Shown here: piece by piece, positions 2 through 11,335 of the stretch | Layout: each line of letters starts with the position of its first letter | Numbering within the stretch: position 1 is the first letter of the stretch | Assembly (NCBI GenBank): GCA_029863245.1 | Contig: JAOTVV010000016.1 | Coordinates: forward strand, 914-64,913 | Length of the DNA: 64,000 nucleotides | Reading direction: 5' to 3' | DNA from: Gemmatimonadota bacterium | GTDB lineage: Bacteria; Gemmatimonadota; Gemmatimonadetes; Gemmatimonadales; GWC2-71-9 | Made by a program: the position numbers and the translations under genes | Notes under the pieces: generated by a model | Seen by the model: the letters and a program-made list of their open reading frames with translations, nothing else | Database searches by the model: none | What the model was told of the DNA's origin: nothing

Positions 2-1243
2 GCGGCGACGATCTCCTCGGCAGCCAACCAGACGTTCGTGGTGGGGGACGCCGCGACCACGGCGGCGGTGATCACGGTAACGGACGACGCGGTGGCGCCC
101 ACGATCAACTCGGGGCAGGAGATCCGGATCCGGATTCCGACGGCGTTCCCGATGACGTGGAACACGGCGGTGACGACGGTGACGGTGGGGGGCAGTGCGG
201 CGGCGAAGGTGAAGACGGTACTGAAGAACTACGAGGACGGCGGGAAGACGGCGGTGGTGGACGTGGACGTGAACTTCGTGGCCGGGGATCAGCTGACGAT
301 CACGGGCTTGCAGTTCATGAACTTCACGGCGGCGGCGGCGGCGGACCGGCTGGGGCTGGACGTGACCGACGACCAGGTGGCCGACGCGCTGGACGACAAG
401 ACCAAGGCAATCGGGGCGCCGCAGTTCACGTCGGCGGCCCATCAGAACTTCACGGTGGGCGGGGCGCCGCGGGCGATCAGCCCGATCACGGTGACCGACT
501 ACGCGAGCTTCGGGACGGTGACGGCGGCGCGGGACCTCCGGATCCGGATCCCCACGGGCTTCCCGATGACGTGGGAGACCGGGGACGTGGCGGCGACGCT
601 GGGGGGGAGTGCGGCGGGGAAGGTGTCGCCCACGGTGAGTTATGAGAACGGGGGCCGGACGCTGTGGCTGGACGTGCTGACGGACTTCGTCCCAGGCGAC
701 GTGCTGACGATCAGTGACCTGAGCTACGCCAACTTCACGACGAGCGCGGCGTTGAACCGGCTGGAGCTGGTGCTGGCGGGCGCGGGAGCGGGGACGGCGG
801 CACAGGATCTCAATTCGATTTCGGTGGGGGCGGCCACCATCTCCTCGGCCACGTACCAGACGTTCGTGGTGGGGAGCCCCGCCACGCCCATCAGCCTCAT
901 CACCATCACCGACGACCCGGTGGCACCCAAGGTCACGGCGGGCGGCGAGCTCCGGATCCGGATTCCGGCCGGCTTCAACATGGTCTGGAATACGGCGGTG
1001 ACGACCGTGACGCTGGGGGGGAGTGCGGCGTCGAAGGTGAAGACGACGCTCAAGAACTACGAAGACGGCGGGAAGACGGCGGTAGTGGACGTGGACGTGA
1101 ACTTCGCGGCGGGGGACCAGCTCACGATCTCCGGCTTGCAGTTCATGAACTTCACGGCACCGTCGGCACCGGACCGGCTGGGCCTGGACGTGAACAACGA
1201 CAAGTTCCCGGACGCGTTCGACGACAAGACCAAGACGATCATC
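2..1243 (+). repeat. Three tandem 414-nt (138-aa) coding repeats in A-B-A' order
   Basis: Units at 2-415, 416-829 and 830-1243 all share RIRIP.GFPM.W / GGSAA.KV / YE.GG.T / F..GD.LTI. Units 1 and 3 are much closer to each other than to unit 2. Confidence 0.9.
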
Positions 1244-2005
1244 GCCGGCGGGCTCACGTACGGCGTCGTGGTGACCCCGGACTCGACGGCCGTGACGCAG
1301 CTCCCGACCAACGGGACCAACTACACCACGACCTTTAACGTGAAGAACACCGGGAACACGCCCGACGGGTTCGATCTCGTGGCGACCACCACGCCGGGCA
1401 CCGCGATCACGGTGGTCTCGATCACCGGCCCCGGGGTCACCCCGGGCGGGACGCCGTCCATGGCGGAGCGCGCGGCCCTGGCCCCCGGAGATTCGGTGGT
1501 GGTGACCGTGACCTACTCGGTGGCTGCGGCCGGCGTCGGCACGGTGGATCAGCTGGTCTTCACGGCCCGGTCGCAGGGGAACGCGGCGGTCGAGGACGAC
1601 GGAAAGCTCCTCCTCACCGTTTCCGGTCCGCGGATCACGATCAGCCGTGCCGTGAACCCGAACGGCACGGTGCCTCCCGGTACCGACCTCACGTACACGG
1701 TCACCGTGACCAACAGCGGCAGCGAGGATGCCGTGAACGTCGTCGCGGTCGATTCCCTGGCAGCGGAGTTGGAGTTCAAGGTCGGGAGCGTATCAGACAG
1801 CCTCCCCGCCGGTGTGACCGTCAGTGTGCAGTACTCGGATGATGGGGGCGCGACGTGGGCCTACACGCCCGCCTCGCTCGGCTGCGGTGCCCCGACCGAC
1901 TACGATGGCTGCGTCACCCACATCCGCTTGGCCCTCCAGAACGTCCTGGGCTCGGTGGCCCCCGACAACACCGGCTCCTTCGAATACGTCGCCCGAATCA
2001 AGTAG
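2..2005 (+). CDS. 5'-truncated large repetitive surface protein (putative tip adhesin): three 138-aa beta-rich repeats, an Ig-like domain and a C-terminally incomplete DUF11-like domain
   Basis: Frame is open from base 2 (AATISSAANQTFVVG), so the gene starts before the window. C-terminal PGTDLTYTVTVTNSG...VVAVDSL...FEYVARIK matches the DUF11 pattern. Confidence 0.85.
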   Translation, partial: AATISSAANQTFVVGDAATTAAVITVTDDAVAPTINSGQEIRIRIPTAFPMTWNTAVTTVTVGGSAAAKVKTVLKNYEDGGKTAVVDVDVNFVAGDQLTITGLQFMNFTAAAAADRLGLDVTDDQVADALDDKTKAIGAPQFTSAAHQNFTVGGAPRAISPITVTDYASFGTVTAARDLRIRIPTGFPMTWETGDVAATLGGSAAGKVSPTVSYENGGRTLWLDVLTDFVPGDVLTISDLSYANFTTSAALNRLELVLAGAGAGTAAQDLNSISVGAATISSATYQTFVVGSPATPISLITITDDPVAPKVTAGGELRIRIPAGFNMVWNTAVTTVTLGGSAASKVKTTLKNYEDGGKTAVVDVDVNFAAGDQLTISGLQFMNFTAPSAPDRLGLDVNNDKFPDAFDDKTKTIIAGGLTYGVVVTPDSTAVTQLPTNGTNYTTTFNVKNTGNTPDGFDLVATTTPGTAITVVSITGPGVTPGGTPSMAERAALAPGDSVVVTVTYSVAAAGVGTVDQLVFTARSQGNAAVEDDGKLLLTVSGPRITISRAVNPNGTVPPGTDLTYTVTVTNSGSEDAVNVVAVDSLAAELEFKVGSVSDSLPAGVTVSVQYSDDGGATWAYTPASLGCGAPTDYDGCVTHIRLALQNVLGSVAPDNTGSFEYVARIK

Positions 2006-2032
2006 CGCCGCCGGTCACTCCGTGCCTGCCAC

Positions 2033-2059
2033 GTCACCCCAATGGTTACCTTCAGTAAC
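2033..2059 (+). promoter_or_regulatory. Putative upstream activator sequence GTYAC-N7-GTTAC-N5-GTAAC
   Basis: GTCACcccaatgGTTACcttcaGTAAC. The same geometry recurs at 4308-4334. Confidence 0.65.
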
Positions 2060-2119
2060 ACCGTCACCGGTTCGAACCCGATCGTCATCCCACCAGGATG
2101 TCTCCAACAATATATAGGG

Positions 2120-2130
2120 TAATCACTTAG
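2120..2130. promoter_or_regulatory. IHF-like AT-rich site between the UAS and the sigma54 promoter
   Basis: TAATCACTTAG. Its exact reverse complement is at 4375-4385 in the second promoter. Confidence 0.5.
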
Positions 2131-2156
2131 CCATTACGACCCTCGCCGGCCGGTAA

Positions 2157-2172
2157 CGGCACGCGTCGTGCC
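2157..2172 (+). promoter_or_regulatory. sigma54 (-24/-12) promoter
   Basis: CGGCACGCGTCGTGCC has GG(2158)-N10-GC(2170) and matches TGGCACG-N4-TTGC. Confidence 0.65.
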
Positions 2173-2213
2173 TTTTCTCCGACCCGGACGCAACTCGAAA
2201 TGTGGAGTCTCGC

Positions 2214-2399
2214 ATGGTCTTGAGGTGCCCGCACTGCGAAACGCTCGCGCGATATCTTCGCGGTGACTTCAGCGGCAAGTGGGTGATCTGCCACGTCTGC
2301 GAAGCACCGTTCGCGTGGCGCGAGCACCAGACGCAGCTGGAAGGGGCGAAAACCGTGTGGGGCAGAGCCCGACGCAGCACGGAGGAGACGGAGCGATGA
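2214..2399 (+). CDS. Small zinc-ribbon protein (CPHC...CHVC)
   Basis: GGAG precedes ATG 2214 (alternative GTG 2202). Two CxxC pairs. The stop overlaps the next start (ATGA 2396-2399). Confidence 0.6.
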   Translation: MVLRCPHCETLARYLRGDFSGKWVICHVCEAPFAWREHQTQLEGAKTVWGRARRSTEETER

Positions 2400-2926
2400 A
2401 CACGACGCGATACAGCTGGATCGCCGCGGCACTCGTGGCCGCAACGGTGACGCCCTTGGCCGCGCAGCAGGGCGAGCCCCAGGCCCTCGTCATTTCAGCG
2501 CAGAACCTCATGGCTGGGGACGAGCGGCACCAGGAATTGGCCGATCCTACCGCGCTGCTTCCCGGGGACGTGGTCCAGTACCGGCTGGTGTTCACCAACG
2601 TGAACGCCGTGCCGGTGCGCAACATCGCGCTGAACGACCCGATCCCGTCGGGACTCCGCTACGTCGGCGCCTCGGCCGCAGCCGATCGCGACGACACGGT
2701 GGTCGAGTTCTCGATCGATGGCGGAGTGACCTTCGCCGCCGAGCCGATGATCGAGGAGATGGTGGACGGCAAGCCGGTGATGAAGCCGGCGCCGCCGGAA
2801 CGCTACACGCACGTCCGTTGGACGGTACAGGGCTGGGTGCAACCCGGCGCCACGGTCACGGCCGAGTTTCAAGCCCGGCTGCCGGGCGCCGCAGCCGTCC
2901 CGGACAGTACCGCGAACGCCAAATAG
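2396..2926 (+). CDS. Secreted single DUF11-like domain protein (putative chaperone or assembly factor)
   Basis: RBS GGAGGAG and signal peptide (…TPLAA-QQ). Motifs LLPGDVVQYRLVFTN, LNDPIP, VEFSIDGG, YTHVRW, AEFQARL. Confidence 0.85.
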   Translation: MNTTRYSWIAAALVAATVTPLAAQQGEPQALVISAQNLMAGDERHQELADPTALLPGDVVQYRLVFTNVNAVPVRNIALNDPIPSGLRYVGASAAADRDDTVVEFSIDGGVTFAAEPMIEEMVDGKPVMKPAPPERYTHVRWTVQGWVQPGATVTAEFQARLPGAAAVPDSTANAK

Positions 2927-2967
2927 TCACTGGTCACACGTGACGCAAAAGAGATAGGGAGGAACTC

Positions 2968-4200
2968 ATGCTGTGGAACTCGAACTGGATGACGCGCACC
3001 TTGGCGCTTCTCGCCGTCGCCGCGGTCGCGCTGACCGTTCCGGCCTCGGCGCAGACGCCCGAGGGCACGATCATCACGAATACGGCCACGGTGAATTACG
3101 AAGACACCACCGGGAGGGCCTACACGCCCGCCAGCGCCTCGGTGTCGATCACCGTCGCCTTCAAGGCCGGGCTCCTCACGGTGGCGGCTGACGGCACCGT
3201 GTACCCCGCGTCCCCCAGCAACGCCGACACGATCGCGTTCACGATCAACAACACCGGGAACGGAGTGGACACGGTGCAGGTGACCGAGTCGATGACGGTC
3301 GCTGGGATCATGACCAACATCACATACCGGCTCAACGGTGCTGCCGTCTACCTGTCGCTCGGCGACCTCAACACGGCGCTCGCGTCGCTCCAGCTCGCTG
3401 GCATCACGGGGTCGGCACAGATCCAGGTGATCTATGACGTGCCCGACGGGCAGGGTGGCCAGTCCACCGTGTACAGCCTCACGGCGACGTCCGTCCGAGA
3501 CAACACGATGCAGAGTACCGGCCAGACCACGGTTGCGCCGCCGTCGGCGTACGCCGTCGTCGTGACGCCGGACAGCACCACCCCGGCGGCCGAGCGGCTC
3601 CCGGGTGGCGCCCCGTATCAGTTTACGTTCTACGTGAGGAACGCCGGGAACATCTCCGACACCTACACGCTCGCAGCCACCAACAGCGGCGCCGCGATCG
3701 TCGTCGGGACATTCAGCCCCGCGTCGCCAGTGACCATCGCGTCCGGCGATTCCGTGGCGGTGACGGTGGACTACACGATCAACGAGGTGGCGGCCGGCGC
3801 TACCGATCGGCTGACGCTGACCGCAACGTCGACCACGCAACCGCCGACGGACGACGGGTTCCTCGACATGGTCGTGGTGCGTCCGACGGTTGCGATCGCC
3901 AAGGCGGTGTTCGCGCCCGACTCCCTCACGGCCCTGGCGGGGAACGTGCAGCCGGGGGACATCATCTGGTATCGGGTTGAGGTGCAGAATCCCGCCGGTG
4001 CCAACGCCCGCAACGCCCAGAACGTCGTGGTGAGCGACTCGTTGCCGGCGGAGCTGACGTTTAGCCTGCTGGCTCCGGACACCGGGAGCGACTGGACCCT
4101 GGCCTACAACGCGGGCACGCGATTCGTGACCGCCACCCTCGGGGTGGCTCTCGCTCCGGGCGCGAGCCGTCACTTCTGGATCCAGGCACAAGTGAACTGA
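2968..4200 (+). CDS. Secreted DUF11-family protein, putative major fibre subunit
   Basis: Strong RBS GGGAGGAA and signal peptide (…PASA-Q). N-terminal TPEGTIITNTATVNY segment, two Ig-like domains, and a C-terminal DUF11 domain ending FWIQAQVN. Confidence 0.9.
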   Translation: MLWNSNWMTRTLALLAVAAVALTVPASAQTPEGTIITNTATVNYEDTTGRAYTPASASVSITVAFKAGLLTVAADGTVYPASPSNADTIAFTINNTGNGVDTVQVTESMTVAGIMTNITYRLNGAAVYLSLGDLNTALASLQLAGITGSAQIQVIYDVPDGQGGQSTVYSLTATSVRDNTMQSTGQTTVAPPSAYAVVVTPDSTTPAAERLPGGAPYQFTFYVRNAGNISDTYTLAATNSGAAIVVGTFSPASPVTIASGDSVAVTVDYTINEVAAGATDRLTLTATSTTQPPTDDGFLDMVVVRPTVAIAKAVFAPDSLTALAGNVQPGDIIWYRVEVQNPAGANARNAQNVVVSDSLPAELTFSLLAPDTGSDWTLAYNAGTRFVTATLGVALAPGASRHFWIQAQVN

Positions 4201-4243
4201 CCCGGTCCCCGCTTCGACGGGGCGTACACCAAGTTCCACGGCA

Positions 4244-4275
4244 GAGGCCCCGCGGTCCGTTGACCGCGGGGCCTC
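4244..4275 (+). terminator. 14-bp stem hairpin after the subunit gene (terminator or mRNA stabiliser)
   Basis: GAGGCCCCGCGGTC-cgtt-GACCGCGGGGCCTC, with only a weak U-tract. Confidence 0.65.
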
Positions 4276-4307
4276 GCCGCTTCCGTTAACTCCCCTTCAT
4301 TCAACGG

Positions 4308-4334
4308 GTTACCAATCCGGTTACCATCGGTAAC
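4308..4334 (+). promoter_or_regulatory. Putative upstream activator sequence, second copy
   Basis: GTTACcaatccgGTTACcatcgGTAAC, with the same spacing as 2033-2059. Confidence 0.65.
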
Positions 4335-4424
4335 TCCAGGGCCTCCAGCCTGCAAACGGGGCAAATCCTCTCCGCTAAGTGATTATGCTGTAACAGCTTA
4401 GGTAGCCCGCATGTGAGCGGTGTT

Positions 4425-4440
4425 TGGCATACGACCTGCC
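4425..4440 (+). promoter_or_regulatory. sigma54 (-24/-12) promoter
   Basis: TGGCATACGACCTGCC has GG(4426)-N10-GC(4438). Confidence 0.65.
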
Positions 4441-4472
4441 CTCTGAAGGGTGACGTTGGAGAGCGGGAATCC

Positions 4473-7400
4473 ATGCCACACGCAGGCCGAACAATGCGGA
4501 CCGGTATCCGGCCCGGGAGGGGACTCCTCGGGGCGGTCGCTGTGCTGCTGTGCTGTGGCTTGCCGCTCGAGGCTCAGGGACCCACCGCCGCTGGAACCGA
4601 GATCTCCAACGTCGCCCAGGCCACCTACGTGGCGCCCAACGGTCACACCTTCACCGCCGTCTCCAACGTCCTGGTGGTGACCGTCGCCCAGATGGCCGGC
4701 GTCGACCTCGCGCCCCCACGCACAACCACCGCAAACCCGGGTGGCCGCGTGGTGTTCGCCCACACCGTGACCAACGCGGGCAACGGTACCGACAGCGTAC
4801 GGCTCTCGGCCACATCGGCCGCCGGTTGGCCCACGCTGATCTACCGTGACCTGAACGGTGACGGCGTCCTCGACGCCGGAGAGTCGCAGATCCAGGGGCC
4901 GGTCACGCTCTCCGCGGGTGCCGCGATGGCTCTCCTCGTCGTCGTGGACGTTCCGACCTCGGCGACCGTGCGCGGCACCACCGACTCGGTGACGGTTGTC
5001 GCGGTGAGTGAGTTCGACGGCTCCCGACGCGATGCCTGCGTCGACGTGCTCCAGATCCAGGACGTCGGTGTCCTAGTCACGCTCTCCAAGCTCGTGGACC
5101 GCACCACGGCGACGGCCGGGGACATCCTCACCTACACCGTGAGCTACGCCGCTACCGGGACGAACACTGCTTTGACGCTCGCCATGGCCGACCCGATCCC
5201 GCTCGGGTCGTCGTACGTGGCGGGCTCGCTCGAGTGGAACGGCGCGCCGCTCACCGACGGGACCGGTGACGACGCCGGGACGTTCGATCCGGCAGGGAAC
5301 CGGGTGCTCTTCGGGGTGGGCGACGTTCCGGGAGGACAGAGTGGCGTAGTGGCGTTCCAGGTGCGCATCGACGGCGGCCTTGCCGCGGCGACGCCGGTGG
5401 CCAACAACGCAAGCGCCTCCTACGGGACGGTGGCCGGCACCGACTCGGTTGCCTCGAACACGGTCGTCACGACCATCGTCCTCGCGCAGCTCGGGCTGGA
5501 GAAGGTCCTGGTCGGTCCGACCACGGCGCGAATCGGGGAGCAGATCTCCTACACGCTCGTGTCGGTCAACCGATCGAGCACCACGCCGGCCCGCGATGTG
5601 GTTCTCTCCGACACCCTGCCGCCGGAGCTCGAGTACGTGACGGCCAGTCCTGGGGCGAACGTCCTCGGCCAGGTGGTGTCGTGGACCTTGGGCGAGGTTG
5701 CACCGGGCGACTCCGTCCGCGTCTCGCTCACGGCCCGGGTCTCGAGCCTGGTGCGCGACACGCTCTCGGTGCGGAACCTCGCTGTGCTGGCGGCGACGAA
5801 CGCCCCCACGCAGACGGCCATGTCAGACGGCGTCGACCTCGTGGGACTCCTGCCCAATCAGCTCTCGCTGGAGAAGACCGCCGACGTGCTCGAGGTGGGG
5901 TTGGGTGAGACGGCGCCGTACACTCTGGTGCTCGAGAACACTGGGGACAACGCGCTCTCCGGGATCGTGATCGTTGACACCTTGCCGCTGGGTGGCCGCT
6001 ACGCGGAGGGCAGCGCGATCGGGGCGGACTCGGTGCGGGTCGACGGACGGGTCGTCACGTTCTTCGTCACGGGGCCGTTGGCACCAGGTGCCAAACACAC
6101 GGTCCGCTACACGATGGCCGTCGTGTCGGCCGAGACGCCCGTGCTGGAGAACCGGGCCGTGGCGACCGCCGAGGGCGGGTTCGTCGTGGCGAGCATGCAG
6201 CTGGCCTGGGTCCGCGTGCGGCGGAGCTGGCCCATGGAGACCCGCGCGGTGATCGGCAAGGCGTGGCTCGACGTGAACGACGATGGCCGCCAGGGTGCCG
6301 GCGAGCTTGGGGTGGCCGGTCTCGACGTGTGGACCGACGACGGCGAAGTGGCGACCACGGATGGCGACGGGAAGTTCTCGTTCAGGAACGTGCGGCCCGG
6401 CGGTCATGCCTTCAGGATCGATCCGACCACGGTGCCGGCCGGCTACCGCATCGCAGCGTCGGATCGGATCGTGCCGGTGGACGCGGACGGCTGGACCACC
6501 CCGAACGTGCAGTTCCGGCTCGTGCCCACCACTGGTCGCGTGGAGGGCGCGCGCATCCCGGTGCCGTGGACGGTCGCGGTACGGCACGTTCGCCCCCCGG
6601 CAGACAGCCCACCCCCGACCCTCGCGGTGACGGCGCAGATAACCGACGCCGTCGATTCGACCGAGGCGGCGTCACCGTCGGTCCCGCTGGCCGTCCTGCC
6701 CGTGACCTTCGGCGTGGGGTCGGCGGTGCTCACGTCGGAATCCCACACAGTGCTCGACGACGTGGCGGGACTGCTGGTAGCGAGCCCGGAAGTCGAAGTC
6801 GAGATCGCCGGCCACACCAGCTCGACCGGGCCACGCCTGTTGAATCTGCGGCTCTCGCTCGAGCGGGCAACATCCGTGACCGACTACCTCATCGCGAGTG
6901 GCATCGATCGCTCACGCGTTCGCGTCGAGGCTTACGGGCCCGACAGACCAGCGGCGAGCAACGACACACCCGAGGGCCGGGCCCGGAACCGACGCGTCGA
7001 AATGAACTTGGTGCGGGGGACCAACGCGGCCGCCGCGGCCACGTTCGTGCGCGGCTTGGCAAGTGTGGGGCTTGCCGACAGCGCGCTTGTTCCGTCCGCT
7101 CCGCCCGCGCCGCGCCCGCCCGTCACCGAGTATGCTGTGACGCTCGCCAACCCAACTGGCCGGCCCCTCGACGGCCTGTCGCTGCGATTCGAAACGCCCC
7201 CCGACTCCGCCAGGCTCGTGATCGGGGGCGCGCCGGCGCACGTAGATCCCGCAACGATGGCGCTCCCGCCCATCGCGCCGCGTGCGAACGTTGCGCTCAC
7301 GGTGTGGGCGACCGCGACCGGCGATTCGACCTGGGTCGCACTGCAGGCACCCGGCCGCGCGGGCGAGCGGATGGCCGTGAGCGTGGCCGACCTGCCCGTC

Positions 7401-10400
7401 CCCACCGAAGGCGTGATAGACGTCGCCGTCGAAACAGCCGATCTCCCCGACCCGGCGCTGGTGGGAGCCGGTCGCGCGGTGACGCTGTCGGTCGCGCCAG
7501 CGACTCGCGGGTGGCCCGAGCTCACGCTGCCGCTGCCCAACGGGTGGGAGCCGGTGCCCGGCAGTACCCGCCTCGCCGGTGTGCCCACGCCCGACCCGGC
7601 CGCGCGGGCCGACTCCGGTGGTGGGACCCTGCTGGTCTGGGACTTCGGGAAGCGCGCGATGGGTCCGATCACGGTCGAGATGCGCCCGGCGGCGCATACG
7701 ATGCCGGACGAGTCAGTAACCATCCCCGCACTCCGGAGCGATACAGACCGCCTGGAGGACCGTCGAACGGCATTCCTGTTCGGGCCGTCCGTCGAGATCT
7801 TCGGGCTCCAGGATGGGACGATCACCGCCCGCGATCGCGTCTTCATCGGTGTGAAGGGCGAGGCTGGGCAGCCGGTCACCCTGTACGACGGTGACTCGGT
7901 GCTTGCGCGCGGCAATATCCGGATCGACGGCATTCACGACTTCATCGCCGTTCCGCTCGACCCGGGTCCGCACGTGCTGCGCGTAGCCATGCGCAACACC
8001 TGGAGTCAGGAGCGGTGGGACAGCATCGCCGTGCACGTGAGCGACGTGCCCGCCAGCCTGGTGGGTTCGACAGGCACGCTCACGCTGCGGGCGGATGGCC
8101 AGAGTGTCGAGACCGTCCGGGTCCGGATGCTCGATCGCTGGGGCGTGCCCCTCGTGTTCCCGACGCAGGCCACGGTGACGGTGGACGGCGCCGAGGCGCT
8201 GGGGAGCGACACCGACCCCTCGTCGGTCGGGCTGCAACACCGGACCGACTCGCTCGGCTGGCTCACCGTCCGGATCAAGCCGGGCCACGAGGTGCGTCGC
8301 GGCAGGCTCGCGCTGCGAACGGCCGATGTGACGTACGAACGCCCACTCGAAACGCTGCCTGCCACGCCTCCGTTGATGGTGACCGGTGTGGGCCGAGTGG
8401 GTGTGGGCGCCAGTCCCGACGCGTTCGGTGCGATCACGGCCCGCGGTCGGCTGGATGACCGCACGTCGGTGGTGGTGAGCGTCGACTCCCGGCGCCTCGA
8501 TGCCAACCGCGAGACATTCGGCCGCGACTTCGATCCGTTGGATGAGGCCCAGTACCCCATCCTGGGCGATGCCAGCAGCGTGCGGACCGTGAGCGCGTCG
8601 CAACACGCCGTGGCCGCCCGCATCGAGCGCGGCTTCGACTGGCTCGCCATTGGTGACGTGTCGACCGGCGATTTCGCTGAGGGACTGAGCCTCGCCGCCT
8701 ACAGGCGGGCCCTGTCCGGAGGCATGGCGCGGATTGCCACGGGGCCCGTCTCCTGGCGCGGGTTTGCCAGCGTCACCAGTCAGAGCCTCGAGCAGGAACA
8801 GATCCGCGGCGCCGGCATCTCGGGTCCGTACTCACTGGGCGGCGCGGCGATCCCCGGCACCGAGCAGATCGTGGTCGAGATGCGCGATCGCGAAAACCCG
8901 CAGCGCGTGCTCACTCGACAGATGCTGGTCCGCTTCATCGACTATCAGATCGACTACCAGGTGGGAACGCTCCTGTTCAAGCGACCCGTGCCGGCTGCCG
9001 ACGCGGCCGACAACCCCGTGTTCCTGATGGTGACCTATGAGGGGCGCAGTGGAGGAGACCAGCGCCTCGTGGGTGGCGTTCGCGCCAGCCTCGATGCGCT
9101 GGGTTGGTCGAGGCTCCAGGTCGATTCGCTGCGGCTGGGTGTCACCGCGATCCATGCCGACGAGCCCGGCGGGGCGTTCGACATGACCGGCGTCGACGTG
9201 CGACTCCTCCGGTTCGCCGGGTTCGATCTGGGTGGTGAGATCTCCTACTCGCATGCTCCGGACTCGAGCGGCTTCGCCACGTCGCTCACCGGATCCGTCG
9301 AATTGTTGGGTGGCGCCGCCAAACTGTCGGCGTCGTGGATGAAGATCGGCGACGGCTTCGGGAACCCGTCCAACATCGCGCTCCGGGCCGGCACCGAGGA
9401 ATTCAAGGCTGGCGGCACGTTCCAGGTTGGCGGCACGACGCTCCGCGCGCAGCACGACTTCATGACGTCCACGTCACAGGACGTGAGCCGTCGGCGTACG
9501 ACCCTCGGCGTGGGGCAGCCGGTGGGGAAGACCCTGAGGATCGAGGCGAATCAGACACTCGACAGTTTCGAGAACGGCGCCGACGGTGACCGCTCGCAGG
9601 CGTTGGAGGGGAAGCTCGTGTGGACACCCCTCGACCGGCTCGAGTTGTGGGCCGAGGGGCGGCAGCAGCTGGGGTCGAGCGAGAGCTTGGTGCGGCCGAA
9701 TCACGTCGGGGCAGGGGCGGGCGTCAACGTCACTGATGACCTCCGCGTCGAGCTGCGGCATCGCCGCGTGCTCCTCCCCGCGGACGAGTCGTACGGGGTC
9801 ACCAACATCGGGCTCACGTCGGACGTTGGCTTCGGCACTCGGGCCTGGGGATCCTATCAACTCGCTGGCGGTGCCGGCGCGCAGTACAACGCCGCGATCA
9901 TCGGTCTCAACAACCGGATCACCCTCGGTTCGGCCTGGACGGTGAACTCGATGTTCGAGCGTCGGTTCGGACTGAACGATGCGGAGCTGGGCGACCCGGT
10001 CCGCGCGCTCCCGTTTCTGCAGGACGAAGAGGACTACTGGTCTGCCGGGCTCGGGGTGGAGCTGTTGCCGCAGGGCGCCCCCTACCGCGTGACCGCACGC
10101 GGTGAGTACCGCGACGGCGAGCGGCTGTCGACCCGCCTGTTCACGCTGGCCGGTGATCTCTCGTTGAATCGCTCGCTGGCCGTGCTGTCCCGCCAGGAGC
10201 TGCTCTCCACTGAGCAGACCCTCACTACCGGAACCGAAACCGGTCGGCGCGTCGCGTCCCTCTGGGGGGTAGCGTTCCGGCCTATCGGCAGCGAGGCGGT
10301 GAACGTGCTGACCAAGGTCTCCTGGCTCGACGAGACCAACCCTCGGAACCGGGGCGTGTTGACCAGCCTGGGTCAGGAGCAGCGCCTGATCGGGGCGGCC

Positions 10401-10814
10401 GAGGTGATTTGGACACCGACACGCCGCACCGAGCTGGCGGGCCGCTATGCCATCCGCCGCACCGAGGCCGATCGGCTGCACGAGGACGGCGTCACCCAGC
10501 GGCTCGAGTCCACGGCCGACTACGTGGGCGCGCGCACCAGCGTGATCATCAACCCGTTCCTCACCTTCCGGGCGGATGGACGTCTCCTGATCGAGCGCGC
10601 GAGCGGCACCACCCGCTGGGACGCGGCACCGGCACTCGCCGTTGGGCTGCTCGATCTCCTCGAGGTGGTGGTGGGCTACCGCTTCGGTGACCTACGGGAT
10701 CCGGACTTCTCGGTTCGCGGCGGGCATGGGGCGTTCCTCACACTCGGCACCAAGGTCACGGAAGGGTCTGTCGCGACCGTGGCCGACTTCTGGCGCTCTC
10801 GGTTCGGTAGCTGA
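4473..10814 (+). CDS. Giant outer-membrane protein: subunit-like N-terminus, three DUF11 domains, SdrD-B-like domain, OmpA-like domain, Ig-like domains and a C-terminal beta-barrel
   Basis: Signal peptide, then TAAGTEISNVAQATY. Three K...G..(L/I/A).YT...D.(I/L)P modules. VIGKAWLDVNDDG...TTDGDGKFSF; GHTS...LSLERA...NRRVE; long amphipathic beta-strand C-terminus. Start set at ATG 4473 (RBS, downstream of the promoter). Confidence 0.88.
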   Translation: MPHAGRTMRTGIRPGRGLLGAVAVLLCCGLPLEAQGPTAAGTEISNVAQATYVAPNGHTFTAVSNVLVVTVAQMAGVDLAPPRTTTANPGGRVVFAHTVTNAGNGTDSVRLSATSAAGWPTLIYRDLNGDGVLDAGESQIQGPVTLSAGAAMALLVVVDVPTSATVRGTTDSVTVVAVSEFDGSRRDACVDVLQIQDVGVLVTLSKLVDRTTATAGDILTYTVSYAATGTNTALTLAMADPIPLGSSYVAGSLEWNGAPLTDGTGDDAGTFDPAGNRVLFGVGDVPGGQSGVVAFQVRIDGGLAAATPVANNASASYGTVAGTDSVASNTVVTTIVLAQLGLEKVLVGPTTARIGEQISYTLVSVNRSSTTPARDVVLSDTLPPELEYVTASPGANVLGQVVSWTLGEVAPGDSVRVSLTARVSSLVRDTLSVRNLAVLAATNAPTQTAMSDGVDLVGLLPNQLSLEKTADVLEVGLGETAPYTLVLENTGDNALSGIVIVDTLPLGGRYAEGSAIGADSVRVDGRVVTFFVTGPLAPGAKHTVRYTMAVVSAETPVLENRAVATAEGGFVVASMQLAWVRVRRSWPMETRAVIGKAWLDVNDDGRQGAGELGVAGLDVWTDDGEVATTDGDGKFSFRNVRPGGHAFRIDPTTVPAGYRIAASDRIVPVDADGWTTPNVQFRLVPTTGRVEGARIPVPWTVAVRHVRPPADSPPPTLAVTAQITDAVDSTEAASPSVPLAVLPVTFGVGSAVLTSESHTVLDDVAGLLVASPEVEVEIAGHTSSTGPRLLNLRLSLERATSVTDYLIASGIDRSRVRVEAYGPDRPAASNDTPEGRARNRRVEMNLVRGTNAAAAATFVRGLASVGLADSALVPSAPPAPRPPVTEYAVTLANPTGRPLDGLSLRFETPPDSARLVIGGAPAHVDPATMALPPIAPRANVALTVWATATGDSTWVALQAPGRAGERMAVSVADLPVPTEGVIDVAVETADLPDPALVGAGRAVTLSVAPATRGWPELTLPLPNGWEPVPGSTRLAGVPTPDPAARADSGGGTLLVWDFGKRAMGPITVEMRPAAHTMPDESVTIPALRSDTDRLEDRRTAFLFGPSVEIFGLQDGTITARDRVFIGVKGEAGQPVTLYDGDSVLARGNIRIDGIHDFIAVPLDPGPHVLRVAMRNTWSQERWDSIAVHVSDVPASLVGSTGTLTLRADGQSVETVRVRMLDRWGVPLVFPTQATVTVDGAEALGSDTDPSSVGLQHRTDSLGWLTVRIKPGHEVRRGRLALRTADVTYERPLETLPATPPLMVTGVGRVGVGASPDAFGAITARGRLDDRTSVVVSVDSRRLDANRETFGRDFDPLDEAQYPILGDASSVRTVSASQHAVAARIERGFDWLAIGDVSTGDFAEGLSLAAYRRALSGGMARIATGPVSWRGFASVTSQSLEQEQIRGAGISGPYSLGGAAIPGTEQIVVEMRDRENPQRVLTRQMLVRFIDYQIDYQVGTLLFKRPVPAADAADNPVFLMVTYEGRSGGDQRLVGGVRASLDALGWSRLQVDSLRLGVTAIHADEPGGAFDMTGVDVRLLRFAGFDLGGEISYSHAPDSSGFATSLTGSVELLGGAAKLSASWMKIGDGFGNPSNIALRAGTEEFKAGGTFQVGGTTLRAQHDFMTSTSQDVSRRRTTLGVGQPVGKTLRIEANQTLDSFENGADGDRSQALEGKLVWTPLDRLELWAEGRQQLGSSESLVRPNHVGAGAGVNVTDDLRVELRHRRVLLPADESYGVTNIGLTSDVGFGTRAWGSYQLAGGAGAQYNAAIIGLNNRITLGSAWTVNSMFERRFGLNDAELGDPVRALPFLQDEEDYWSAGLGVELLPQGAPYRVTARGEYRDGERLSTRLFTLAGDLSLNRSLAVLSRQELLSTEQTLTTGTETGRRVASLWGVAFRPIGSEAVNVLTKVSWLDETNPRNRGVLTSLGQEQRLIGAAEVIWTPTRRTELAGRYAIRRTEADRLHEDGVTQRLESTADYVGARTSVIINPFLTFRADGRLLIERASGTTRWDAAPALAVGLLDLLEVVVGYRFGDLRDPDFSVRGGHGAFLTLGTKVTEGSVATVADFWRSRFGS

Positions 10815-10885: not shown

Positions 10886-11335
10886 GTGACCGAGCCCATG
10901 ACGCAGATCAACATGCAGCGCGTTGCCCTGGGGGCCCTGGCGGCCGGAGCCGTGATCTTCGTGGCCGAGCGGATCCTGAGCCAGTTCTACATGGGCCCGA
11001 TGCAGGCATCGCTCGAGGCCCACAACCTGTCCATGGACGTCACGGTGAGCGGCTTCGTGCTAGCGGCACTGGTCTCGCTGCTCGTCGGCTTCGCGCTGGT
11101 CTGGTTCTATGCCGCGGTGCGGTCGCGGTTCGGTCCCGGACCCAAGGCCGCCGCACTCGTGAGCGTCGTGTTGTGGCTGGGCGGCTACGTGCCGTCGGTG
11201 CTGGGCTACAAGATGATGGGGCTATTCACCGACTGGCTGCTTGTGTTCTGGGCGCTCACGGGGCTCGCCGAAGTAATCGTGGCCACGATGGTCGGCGGTT
11301 GGCTCTACAGGGAGAGCGAGTCGGGCGCAGCGTAG
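10886..11335 (+). CDS. Hypothetical membrane protein with four hydrophobic helices
   Basis: Four hydrophobic segments. AAGGAG RBS; start may be ATG 10898. Confidence 0.75.
   Translation: MTEPMTQINMQRVALGALAAGAVIFVAERILSQFYMGPMQASLEAHNLSMDVTVSGFVLAALVSLLVGFALVWFYAAVRSRFGPGPKAAALVSVVLWLGGYVPSVLGYKMMGLFTDWLLVFWALTGLAEVIVATMVGGWLYRESESGAA

Follow-up and report, generated by a model that had tools for sequence, protein, structure and literature searches.

The window analysed here, the whole 64,000-nucleotide stretch taken from contig JAOTVV010000016.1 of a Gemmatimonadota bacterium (assembly GCA_029863245.1), is high in G+C and begins 913 bases into its contig; the source genome, of 3.68 Mb, is 93.9% complete. 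Close to the start of the window, a locus of four genes on the + strand encodes a tip-type protein (P0004), a small protein (P0003), a subunit (P0001) and a giant protein (P0002). The subject of this analysis is P0001, for which an initial annotation of the sequence had predicted intermolecular isopeptide cross-links, formed without a sortase by a Lys, an Asp and an Asn that are divided between the two ends of the subunit. The features of P0001 are as follows.

2968-4200, + strand: subunit P0001, 410 amino acids, translated.
2968..3051, + strand: signal peptide, residues 1-28, ending in A-S-A before Gln29; predicted local distance difference test (pLDDT) score below 55 in the structural model.
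3052..3159, + strand: putative donor hairpin, residues 29-64, equivalent to the final two strands of a DUF11 domain, the first of which bears the Asn; strands at 35-42 and 55-62 in the model.
3160..3885, + strand: shaft domains D1 (residues 65-193) and D2 (194-306), two whole immunoglobulin (Ig)-like domains; pLDDT mostly above 90.
3886..4200, + strand: truncated DUF11/CLIPPER domain D3, the putative acceptor, residues 307-410, holding Lys312 and Asp357.

The three residues assigned to the triad are encoded where they had been placed, Asn38 in T-N-T-A by AAT at 3079-3081, Lys312 in I-A-K-A by AAG at 3901-3903 and Asp357 in S-D-S-L-P by GAC at 4036-4038, and the codon at position 3052 is that of Gln29, the first residue past the A-S-A cleavage motif. 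The C-terminal domain is indeed truncated. P0001 scores 28.3 bits against DUF11/CLIPPER (PF01345), above the gathering cut-off of 24.6, and the match covers residues 323-409, which correspond to positions 9-84 of a profile of 114. There is also a match of 28.6 bits to TIGR01451 (cut-off 24), one of 27.5 bits to the isopeptide-forming TIGR04226 over residues 310-365 that is below the cut-off of 30, and a DUF7507 match to residues 209-296, in D2, that is under its cut-off. The stop codon of P0001 follows directly after the strand that, in whole domains, precedes the Asn strand; a whole DUF11 domain with the Asn strand after the Lys in the same chain is not present in P0001, and the missing strands are found at residues 29-64.

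This arrangement can be read from P0124, a protein of 3372 residues composed of 124-residue DUF11 repeats, to which BLAST aligns P0001 residues 7-99 across a repeat boundary. Each repeat runs from a first strand with Lys, through Asp-x-x-Pro, a strand with Trp and a strand like the C-terminus of P0001, to a Thr-Pro loop that is followed by the Asn strand and the last strand. In the alignment, the strand that leads into the loop is matched by the C-terminal strand of P0001, and the two strands that follow, including that with Asn, by the mature N-terminus of P0001; P0001 is thus a domain array interrupted at the loop that precedes the Asn strand. The assignment of the Asn to a donor segment, and of the Lys and Asp to the truncated domain, is therefore borne out in that the hairpin is homologous to exactly the piece that D3 lacks. 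Eight P0124 repeats were inspected; Asn and Asp are present in all and Lys in all but one. P0124 and the similar giants P0128 and P0140 are arrays of more than 20 tandem 124-residue DUF11 repeats, and such arrays appear to be the uncut counterpart of the fibre proposed below.

As described in the accessible text of PMC12617251, the crystal structure of a CLIPPER (DUF11) domain contains a Lys715-Asn806 bond with Asp748 nearby. P0001 belongs to the same family and has the same order of elements, a Lys in the first strand, an Asp ~35-45 residues further on and an Asn in the penultimate strand, but differs in that the Asn strand and last strand have moved to the N-terminus, such that the domain can be completed only by a detached hairpin. 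Bonds within one chain are the only ones treated in that text (PMC12617251). Whole modules of this kind are present in P0002, and the three intact DUF11 modules originally noted there do hold all three residues in cis (LSK/DPIP/ANNA, LEK/DTLP/RNLA and LEK/DTLP/ENRA; Pfam, 96.6 bits). The second is spaced as in the solved CLIPPER domain (Lys364, Asp400, Asn455). Among 47 aligned homologues, modules 1 and 2 have a Lys, an Asp and an Asn that are each invariant or conserved in 90% or more, and module 3 has an invariant Asp and a Lys that is not conserved.

Structural matches bound the two shaft domains at residues 64-193 and 193-306. The hairpin was considered as part of D1 and this was rejected, as structural matches to D1 begin at residues 64-68; the linker between them, of 4 residues, would also be too short to join the last and first strands of one Ig domain. 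No Protein Data Bank (PDB) chain matched P0001 by sequence or profile. Foldseek against the PDB returned only multi-domain Ig arrays with template-modelling (TM) scores of 0.2-0.36, which are uninformative, and VIA-align against cluster representatives gave matches of the common Ig-like type (best Z 11.2, for D2), which do not inform on insertion in cis versus trans; the solved CLIPPER domain was not among the VIA-align matches listed.

A search of 1.84 billion representatives (E <=0.001) returned 417 relatives of P0001, most of 400-430 residues and some of them giants built of tandem DUF11 repeats. Conservation was evaluated in 185 relatives of 380-450 residues that are 29-87% identical (median 42%), with the triad positions in P0001 set by alignment to whole DUF11 repeats. 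Asn38 is retained in 180 of these, Lys312 in 183 and Asp357 in 184, and K66, the sole other Lys of mature P0001, in 20%. Apart from the substitutions by Ser considered below, the exceptions are one sequence with Ala for Asn38 that retains the Lys and Asp, one without the Lys and one that is truncated there. Gln29 and Thr30 are 99% conserved, the C-terminus falls in the same alignment column in 180 of the 185, and residues 29-64 are the most conserved region of the protein, with a mean column conservation of 0.78 versus 0.56-0.57 in the three domains. Overall identity of the subunit among relatives is ~40-45%, versus 55-72% for the small protein (the latter for its best 120 relatives). The top 200 pairs of a mean-field coupling analysis of 247 sequences include 8 between the hairpin and D3, 5 between the hairpin and D1 and 2 between the hairpin and D2, a weak enrichment for D3.

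A scan of one genome per species gave 81 relatives, for which 80 loci were retained. Strong matches account for 77 of the 80, with 75 titled as Gemmatimonadota lineages and 2 as 'uncultured bacterium', and the remaining three are weak, partial matches in other phyla. Open reading frames (ORFs) in the 80 loci and in the first 11.4 kb of the window were classified into 55 tip-type, 74 small, 83 subunit and 87 giant-type pieces. The gene order tip-type, small, subunit, giant recurs among the loci listed, and from these comparisons the four genes appear to constitute an operon conserved in Gemmatimonadota. Within the phylum the trait is patchy and accessory: the family profile has matches in 19 of 201 sampled genomes, with 17 in the 95 from the window's own family and one in the three from one other family.

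A related genome, G070, carries the same parts divided at a different point. At this locus (L083, contig 11) there are ORFs at 1208-3271 and 3159-8993, of which the first, with 687 residues, is located directly after the small gene. Residues 32-415 of its product align to subunit residues 28-406 with 44% identity and residues 419-687, in frame, to residues 51-321 of the giant with 52% identity. It thus carries the first 270 mature residues of the giant and stops immediately short of the Asn strand in the first DUF11 module of the latter, and the next ORF encodes a signal peptide, an Asn hairpin at the predicted mature N-terminus and the rest of the giant (309-2132, 54% identity). The split in G070 is three domains further along than that in the window, in the same loop, and the domain that is split in the window is contiguous in G070. 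Two stored proteins, P0020 (98.7% identical to the G070 protein) and P0126 (59% identical), have this fused form, which is absent among the 163 ORFs matched in the 80 loci. As they are fused in one chain in G070 and P0126, subunit D3 and the giant's hairpin together make up one domain. A split that has been exchanged for another in the same loop, with a new signal peptide, is hard to explain unless the truncated domains of one chain are completed by the detached hairpins of another. The Lys of D3 (now Gln, Ala) and the Asn of the hairpin (now Ser, Thr) have been lost from both fused proteins, a loss that, in these two sequences, fits with the Lys-Asn pair serving split junctions. With this evidence, it is scarcely credible that the hairpin and the short last domain are independent and that the match to the triad is a coincidence. 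A hairpin that is predicted with confidence in a construct lacking an acceptor, as described below, is what such independence would lead one to expect, but the cut coincides exactly with one loop of a known domain, the shifted split falls there too and conservation extends to all three residues.

The neighbouring genes encode additional halves of this domain type. Their features, and the RNA element between the subunit and giant genes, are as follows.

2..2005, + strand: tip-type P0004, 5' end cut by the contig end; variable repeats, then a truncated DUF11 acceptor at ~1628-2002.
2279..2926, + strand: small DUF11-like P0003, a single domain; likely start ATG 2396; signal peptide.
4244..4275, + strand: stem-loop with a perfect 14-bp G+C stem, between the subunit and giant genes.
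4413..10814, + strand: giant P0002, 2133 amino acids; likely start Met28 at 4494; signal peptide.
4575-4697, + strand: donor-like hairpin of the giant, residues ~55-95, with Asn66 at 4608-4610.
~5076-6212, + strand: three whole DUF11 modules of the giant (Pfam), preceded by an Ig-like domain.
6705-6992, + strand: OmpA-like domain of the giant, preceded by SdrD_B (Pfam).
8910-10811, + strand: beta-barrel-like end of the giant's C-terminal ~1250 residues, from an alternating sequence pattern.

Tip proteins have a signal peptide, then unrelated and varied modules, and the same C-terminal end in 55 of 56 aligned homologues. In their acceptors the Asp is at least 90% conserved and Lys is present at its position in 36 of 55; the other 19 have Asn (12), Ser (2), Arg, Asp, His or Glu (one each) or a gap (one), and P0004 has Arg534 (1637-1639) at this position. 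A hairpin profile built from the subunit family matches 77 of the 83 subunit ORFs, and none of the 55 tip-type or 74 small ORFs. It matches 18 of the 87 giant-type ORFs, a count that understates the presence of the hairpin, as that of the giant is divergent. The giant hairpin has the motif Thr-Pro-x-Gly-Thr-x-Ile-x-Asn-x-Ala ... Tyr, with the Asn present in 48 of 68 sequences, including the window, and none of the giant's own DUF11 modules is truncated. BLASTP of P0001 against P0002 leaves the N-termini unaligned, the relation being visible in secondary tblastn hits and by alignment. From these patterns the operon appears to hold orphan halves, the tip protein having an acceptor alone and the giant an N-terminal hairpin alone.

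The subunit triad is intact in all 18 loci in which the giant hairpin is without Asn, in all 18 in which the tip acceptor is without Lys, and in six loci that lack both the tip Lys and the giant Asn (extra tip genes beyond the fetched flanks are possible). As the triad persists where neither neighbour offers a Lys or an Asn, the conserved pair would be one of subunit with subunit. A stalk of fixed length, in which one tip, one subunit and one giant are held together by two specific strand insertions, would balance the donors and acceptors at 1:1:1, and the shifted-split fusions of subunit and giant resemble such a stalk. We regard this as very unlikely given the intact triad in those six loci, and in the window where the tip has Arg; the stem-loop after the subunit gene would, moreover, fit with a higher output of the subunit.

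These comparisons make it moderately probable that P0001 polymerises in trans with a covalent lock. The components of the predicted intermolecular cross-link that stand are the split halves, the conserved triad, the orphan partners and the shifted split; insertion in trans rather than in cis, and formation of the bond, are the components that are predicted. Several observations weigh against such polymerisation. The new split junction of the G070 type has Asn at the position of the Lys and so cannot form a Lys-Asn bond, and would be non-covalent. With the giant Asn missing from 20 of 68 sequences and the tip Lys from 19 of 55, the covalent lock is also not universal at the fibre ends. Four of the 185 subunits have Ser at position 38 although they retain the Lys and Asp, the coupling signal is weak, and every related locus comes from a metagenome-assembled genome. 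In the AlphaFold2 monomer, finally, a three-domain model with a mean pLDDT of 89.5 and a predicted TM score of 0.66, the hairpin is confident (pLDDT 86-90), which could mean that it is docked on its own D3.

In the alternative that this last observation would favour, each subunit inserts its own hairpin into its own D3 with an intramolecular Lys312-Asn38 bond, and the hairpin of the giant plugs directly into the tip. Consistent with this, the five monomer models fall into two groups by mean pLDDT (89.5 and 88.6 versus 76.3, 74.0 and 72.2), as might docked and undocked hairpins, and neither conservation nor coupling can separate cis from trans. The hairpin is, however, equally confident (~89) in a 551-residue fragment of the giant (residues 50-600) without an open acceptor; such confidence is therefore of no diagnostic value, and the hairpin may be stable alone. 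The scores of a prediction, run without controls, for the complex of two mature copies (29-410) were 0.00, 0.51 and 0.30, with the mark at 0.42, and count neither for nor against insertion in trans. Closure of each subunit on itself is made unlikely by the fused proteins: D3 is completed by the giant's hairpin in G070 and P0126, and so must be open to a donor from another chain, which a covalent self-lock would block. The linker of 4 residues between the hairpin and D1 is like those between tandem domains, and three rigidly linked Ig domains would presumably have to form a ring. Tip acceptors and the giant's donor have, in addition, no partner in cis, and a conserved, separately encoded subunit would be left without a place in the assembly.

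Strands could instead be exchanged in trans without a covalent bond, as in chaperone-usher pili, the triad being kept for folding or packing. Some junctions in the family are clearly without the Lys or the Asn and so seem to be tolerated, and the accessible text of PMC12617251 reports DUF11 domains that have no bond. We nevertheless consider this improbable, as the residues that are nearly invariant are exactly the bond-forming and catalytic residues of CLIPPER, the other Lys is retained in only 20% of relatives, and the Lys and Asn are both lost in the two proteins in which the backbone is continuous.

Returning to covalent polymerisation in trans, we infer the insertion of subunit on subunit, bond formation, a surface location and an order of assembly as follows. 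P0001 would be the shaft subunit of a Gemmatimonadota-specific fibre, exported by Sec to the periplasm where removal of the signal peptide would expose a 36-residue N-terminal beta-hairpin. The tip protein, having only an acceptor domain, would supply the first acceptor and cap the far end. The hairpin of each subunit would then enter the open C-terminal domain of the preceding subunit and complete its fold; this would set Asn38 beside Lys312 and Asp357, and an inter-chain Lys-Asn bond would form with Asp357 as catalyst and with release of ammonia. The hairpin of the giant would fill the last acceptor, and so tie the fibre to an outer-membrane barrel and, through the OmpA-like domain, to peptidoglycan. 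The Lys-less small protein may act as a chaperone or cap that binds hairpins reversibly in the periplasm. Tips would be interchangeable as they would need only the acceptor half. The complete proposal, a third kind of covalent pilus that is diderm and assembled tip-first and without a sortase, with two-chain CLIPPER junctions, interchangeable tips, a giant terminator, a small protein as chaperone or cap and a movable split point, is put forward tentatively.

That no sortase is involved, as initially proposed, is supported by a PF04203 search (E <=0.01) that gave no match in the genome, which is 93.9% complete, and was positive in three control genomes. P0001 has no C-terminal LPXTG-type sorting signal or anchor, and ends directly after the last beta-strand. 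Sortase-assembled pili are similar in that they are covalent fibres with Ig-like CnaA and CnaB domains that contain Lys-Asn bonds; they differ in that sortase joins a C-terminal Thr to the Lys of a pilin motif, whereas the P0001 system is in a diderm host and has neither a sortase nor a sorting signal.

The pairs isopeptag/pilin-C, SnoopTag/SnoopCatcher and SpyTag/SpyCatcher are man-made splits in which a detached strand reacts spontaneously with the rest of its domain, and the bond of SpyTag/SpyCatcher is a CnaB Lys-Asp bond with a Glu. In comparison, P0001 would be a natural split, with a two-strand tag and a CnaA-like E-set domain. The likening of P0001 to SpyTag/SpyCatcher requires amendment for the chemistry, which would be a CnaA-like Lys-Asn bond with a catalytic Asp, as documented for CLIPPER in the accessible text of PMC12617251.

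The principle has published precedents, as BsaA and archaeal threads combine donor strands with intermolecular isopeptide bonds. In BsaA of Clostridium perfringens, the available part of the preprint (bioRxiv 10.1101/2024.11.04.621531) describes Asn35 in an N-terminal donor strand, Lys74 in the acceptor and a catalytic Glu56, with mutants that lose oligomers and a mechanism termed exchange and lock. As is proposed for P0001, BsaA inserts an N-terminal donor with Asn into the next monomer, which bears the Lys and an acidic catalyst. As portrayed there, it differs in having a TasA-like fold, a catalytic Glu, a Gram-positive host, the signal peptidase SipW, export linked to type IV pilus genes and no partner in the outer membrane; the Pfam matches of P0001 include none to the TasA family. 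The archaeal thread protein Saci_0406 has, according to the accessible description, a donor strand and a bond between the N-terminal amine and Asn57 that links subunits n and n+2 (PMC9715654). The likeness is that of a head-to-tail filament with donor strand complementation, a proposed inter-subunit isopeptide bond and no sortase known; the thread differs, compared by that published description only, in being archaeal and glycosylated with no Pfam domain (PMC9715654).

The anatomy of P0001, a donor extension with an incomplete Ig fold, fits that of subunits joined by donor strands, and from the shifted split such a fold is completed by a separate chain. In P pili, the terminator is PapH. As reviewed in the accessible text of PMC13721041, chaperone-usher pili also have an acceptor-only tip, shaft subunits with an N-terminal donor and an acceptor, a donor terminator and an outer-membrane base protein. 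Their junctions are, however, non-covalent. The present system also differs in having a hairpin of two strands as the putative donor, and an anchor joined in one protein to a stalk that resembles a subunit. No Usher (PF00577) or PapD-type family was found in Pfam scans of P0001-P0004 (E <=0.01) and of giant residues 880-2133 (E <=5), the rest of the genome not being scanned. The lipobox Cys of type V pili (FimA/Mfa), which are made from lipoprotein precursors with a strand released by a protease, is absent, as the P0001 signal peptide ends A-S-A-Q with no Cys seen; D3 does match an Mfa5 domain in structure (Z 8.9 over 95 aligned residues, root mean square deviation 3.6), within the common Ig-fold range. 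By the features examined, P0001 falls outside the sortase, chaperone-usher, TasA and type V families. The nearest precedents are BsaA and archaeal threads in principle, intramolecular CLIPPER by sequence, and chaperone-usher pili by polarity.

Covalent pili are a textbook feature of Gram-positive bacteria and are sortase-dependent. Diderm pili are described as non-covalent in the available text of a recent review (Chem Rev 2026, PMC13721041). If the interpretation is correct, a self-locking, split-CLIPPER fibre in a diderm would link the covalent pili of Gram-positive bacteria with the non-covalent pili of diderms, and would bring the most widespread family of isopeptide domains under exchange and lock, so far proposed for the TasA family and archaeal threads. 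A natural CnaA-type tag and catcher, tuned by evolution, would also become available, with related donors and acceptors (subunit, tip, anchor) for mapping cross-reactivity, and a conserved operon of four genes, in a soil phylum that has been little studied, would gain a function. We found no paper on a split DUF11 domain or on such an operon in a literature search that covered few subscription journals, and Table S2 of PMC12617251 may list such domains. The interpretation appears well supported by comparative genomics and is of interest for pilus biology and protein engineering.

The tip-type gene has additional features. From 38 to 1600, upstream of the acceptor, P0004 encodes about three 130-residue repeats with motifs like I-R-I-R-I-P-x-x-F-x-M-x-W. 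Tip homologues elsewhere have quite different N-terminal modules and some loci, L060 for example, have two tip-type genes; varied modules and double tip genes together suggest that tips are interchangeable. The acceptors of P0004 (1628-2002) and its homologues have an insertion with two conserved Cys (G-C-G-A-P ... Y-D-G-C-V), likely to form a disulfide that is absent from subunit D3. A terminator-like stem followed by a T-tract is located between the tip-type and small genes, at 2156-2172, and transcription of the tip gene may therefore be separate from that of the other three.

The small gene is found in almost every related locus, immediately 5' of the subunit gene. P0003 lacks a hairpin, has a residue other than Lys at the acceptor position and contains D/N-P-I-P; that it functions as a cap or periplasmic chaperone is a guess. 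Look-alike clusters of 166-176 residues are present in the Atlas in Pseudomonadota and Acidobacteriota, as are unnamed clusters of 630-680 residues that resemble the C-terminus of the giant, and related systems may thus exist in other phyla. A search for relatives of P0003 returned only close, Gemmatimonadota-like sequences and did not reach the Pseudomonadota clusters. As a lead only, a minority of the Atlas neighbours of the giant's C-terminus carry Porin_4 or OMP_b-brl. On its domain content and sequence pattern, we propose that the giant is an outer-membrane barrel protein that would function as both anchor and terminator. In five loci (L053, L062, L069, L072 and L073), the OmpA-like match is separate and downstream of the giant gene.

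Folding of the region that contains the stem-loop between the subunit and giant genes (4195-4300) gives -52.8 kcal/mol with a z of -4.8, and none of 200 shuffled sequences was as stable. The stem at 4244-4275 has no T-tract and was not called by the terminator scan; by attenuation, or by stabilising the mRNA, it could raise the output of the subunit over that of the giant. Directly 3' of the giant gene, at 10886-11335, there is a 149-residue ORF with only weak matches to membrane-protein families (E 0.006 and 0.04), and the genes downstream of the locus are of housekeeping type, encoding Glu/Leu dehydrogenase-like, M1 peptidase, phosphoenolpyruvate (PEP) carboxylase and other proteins.

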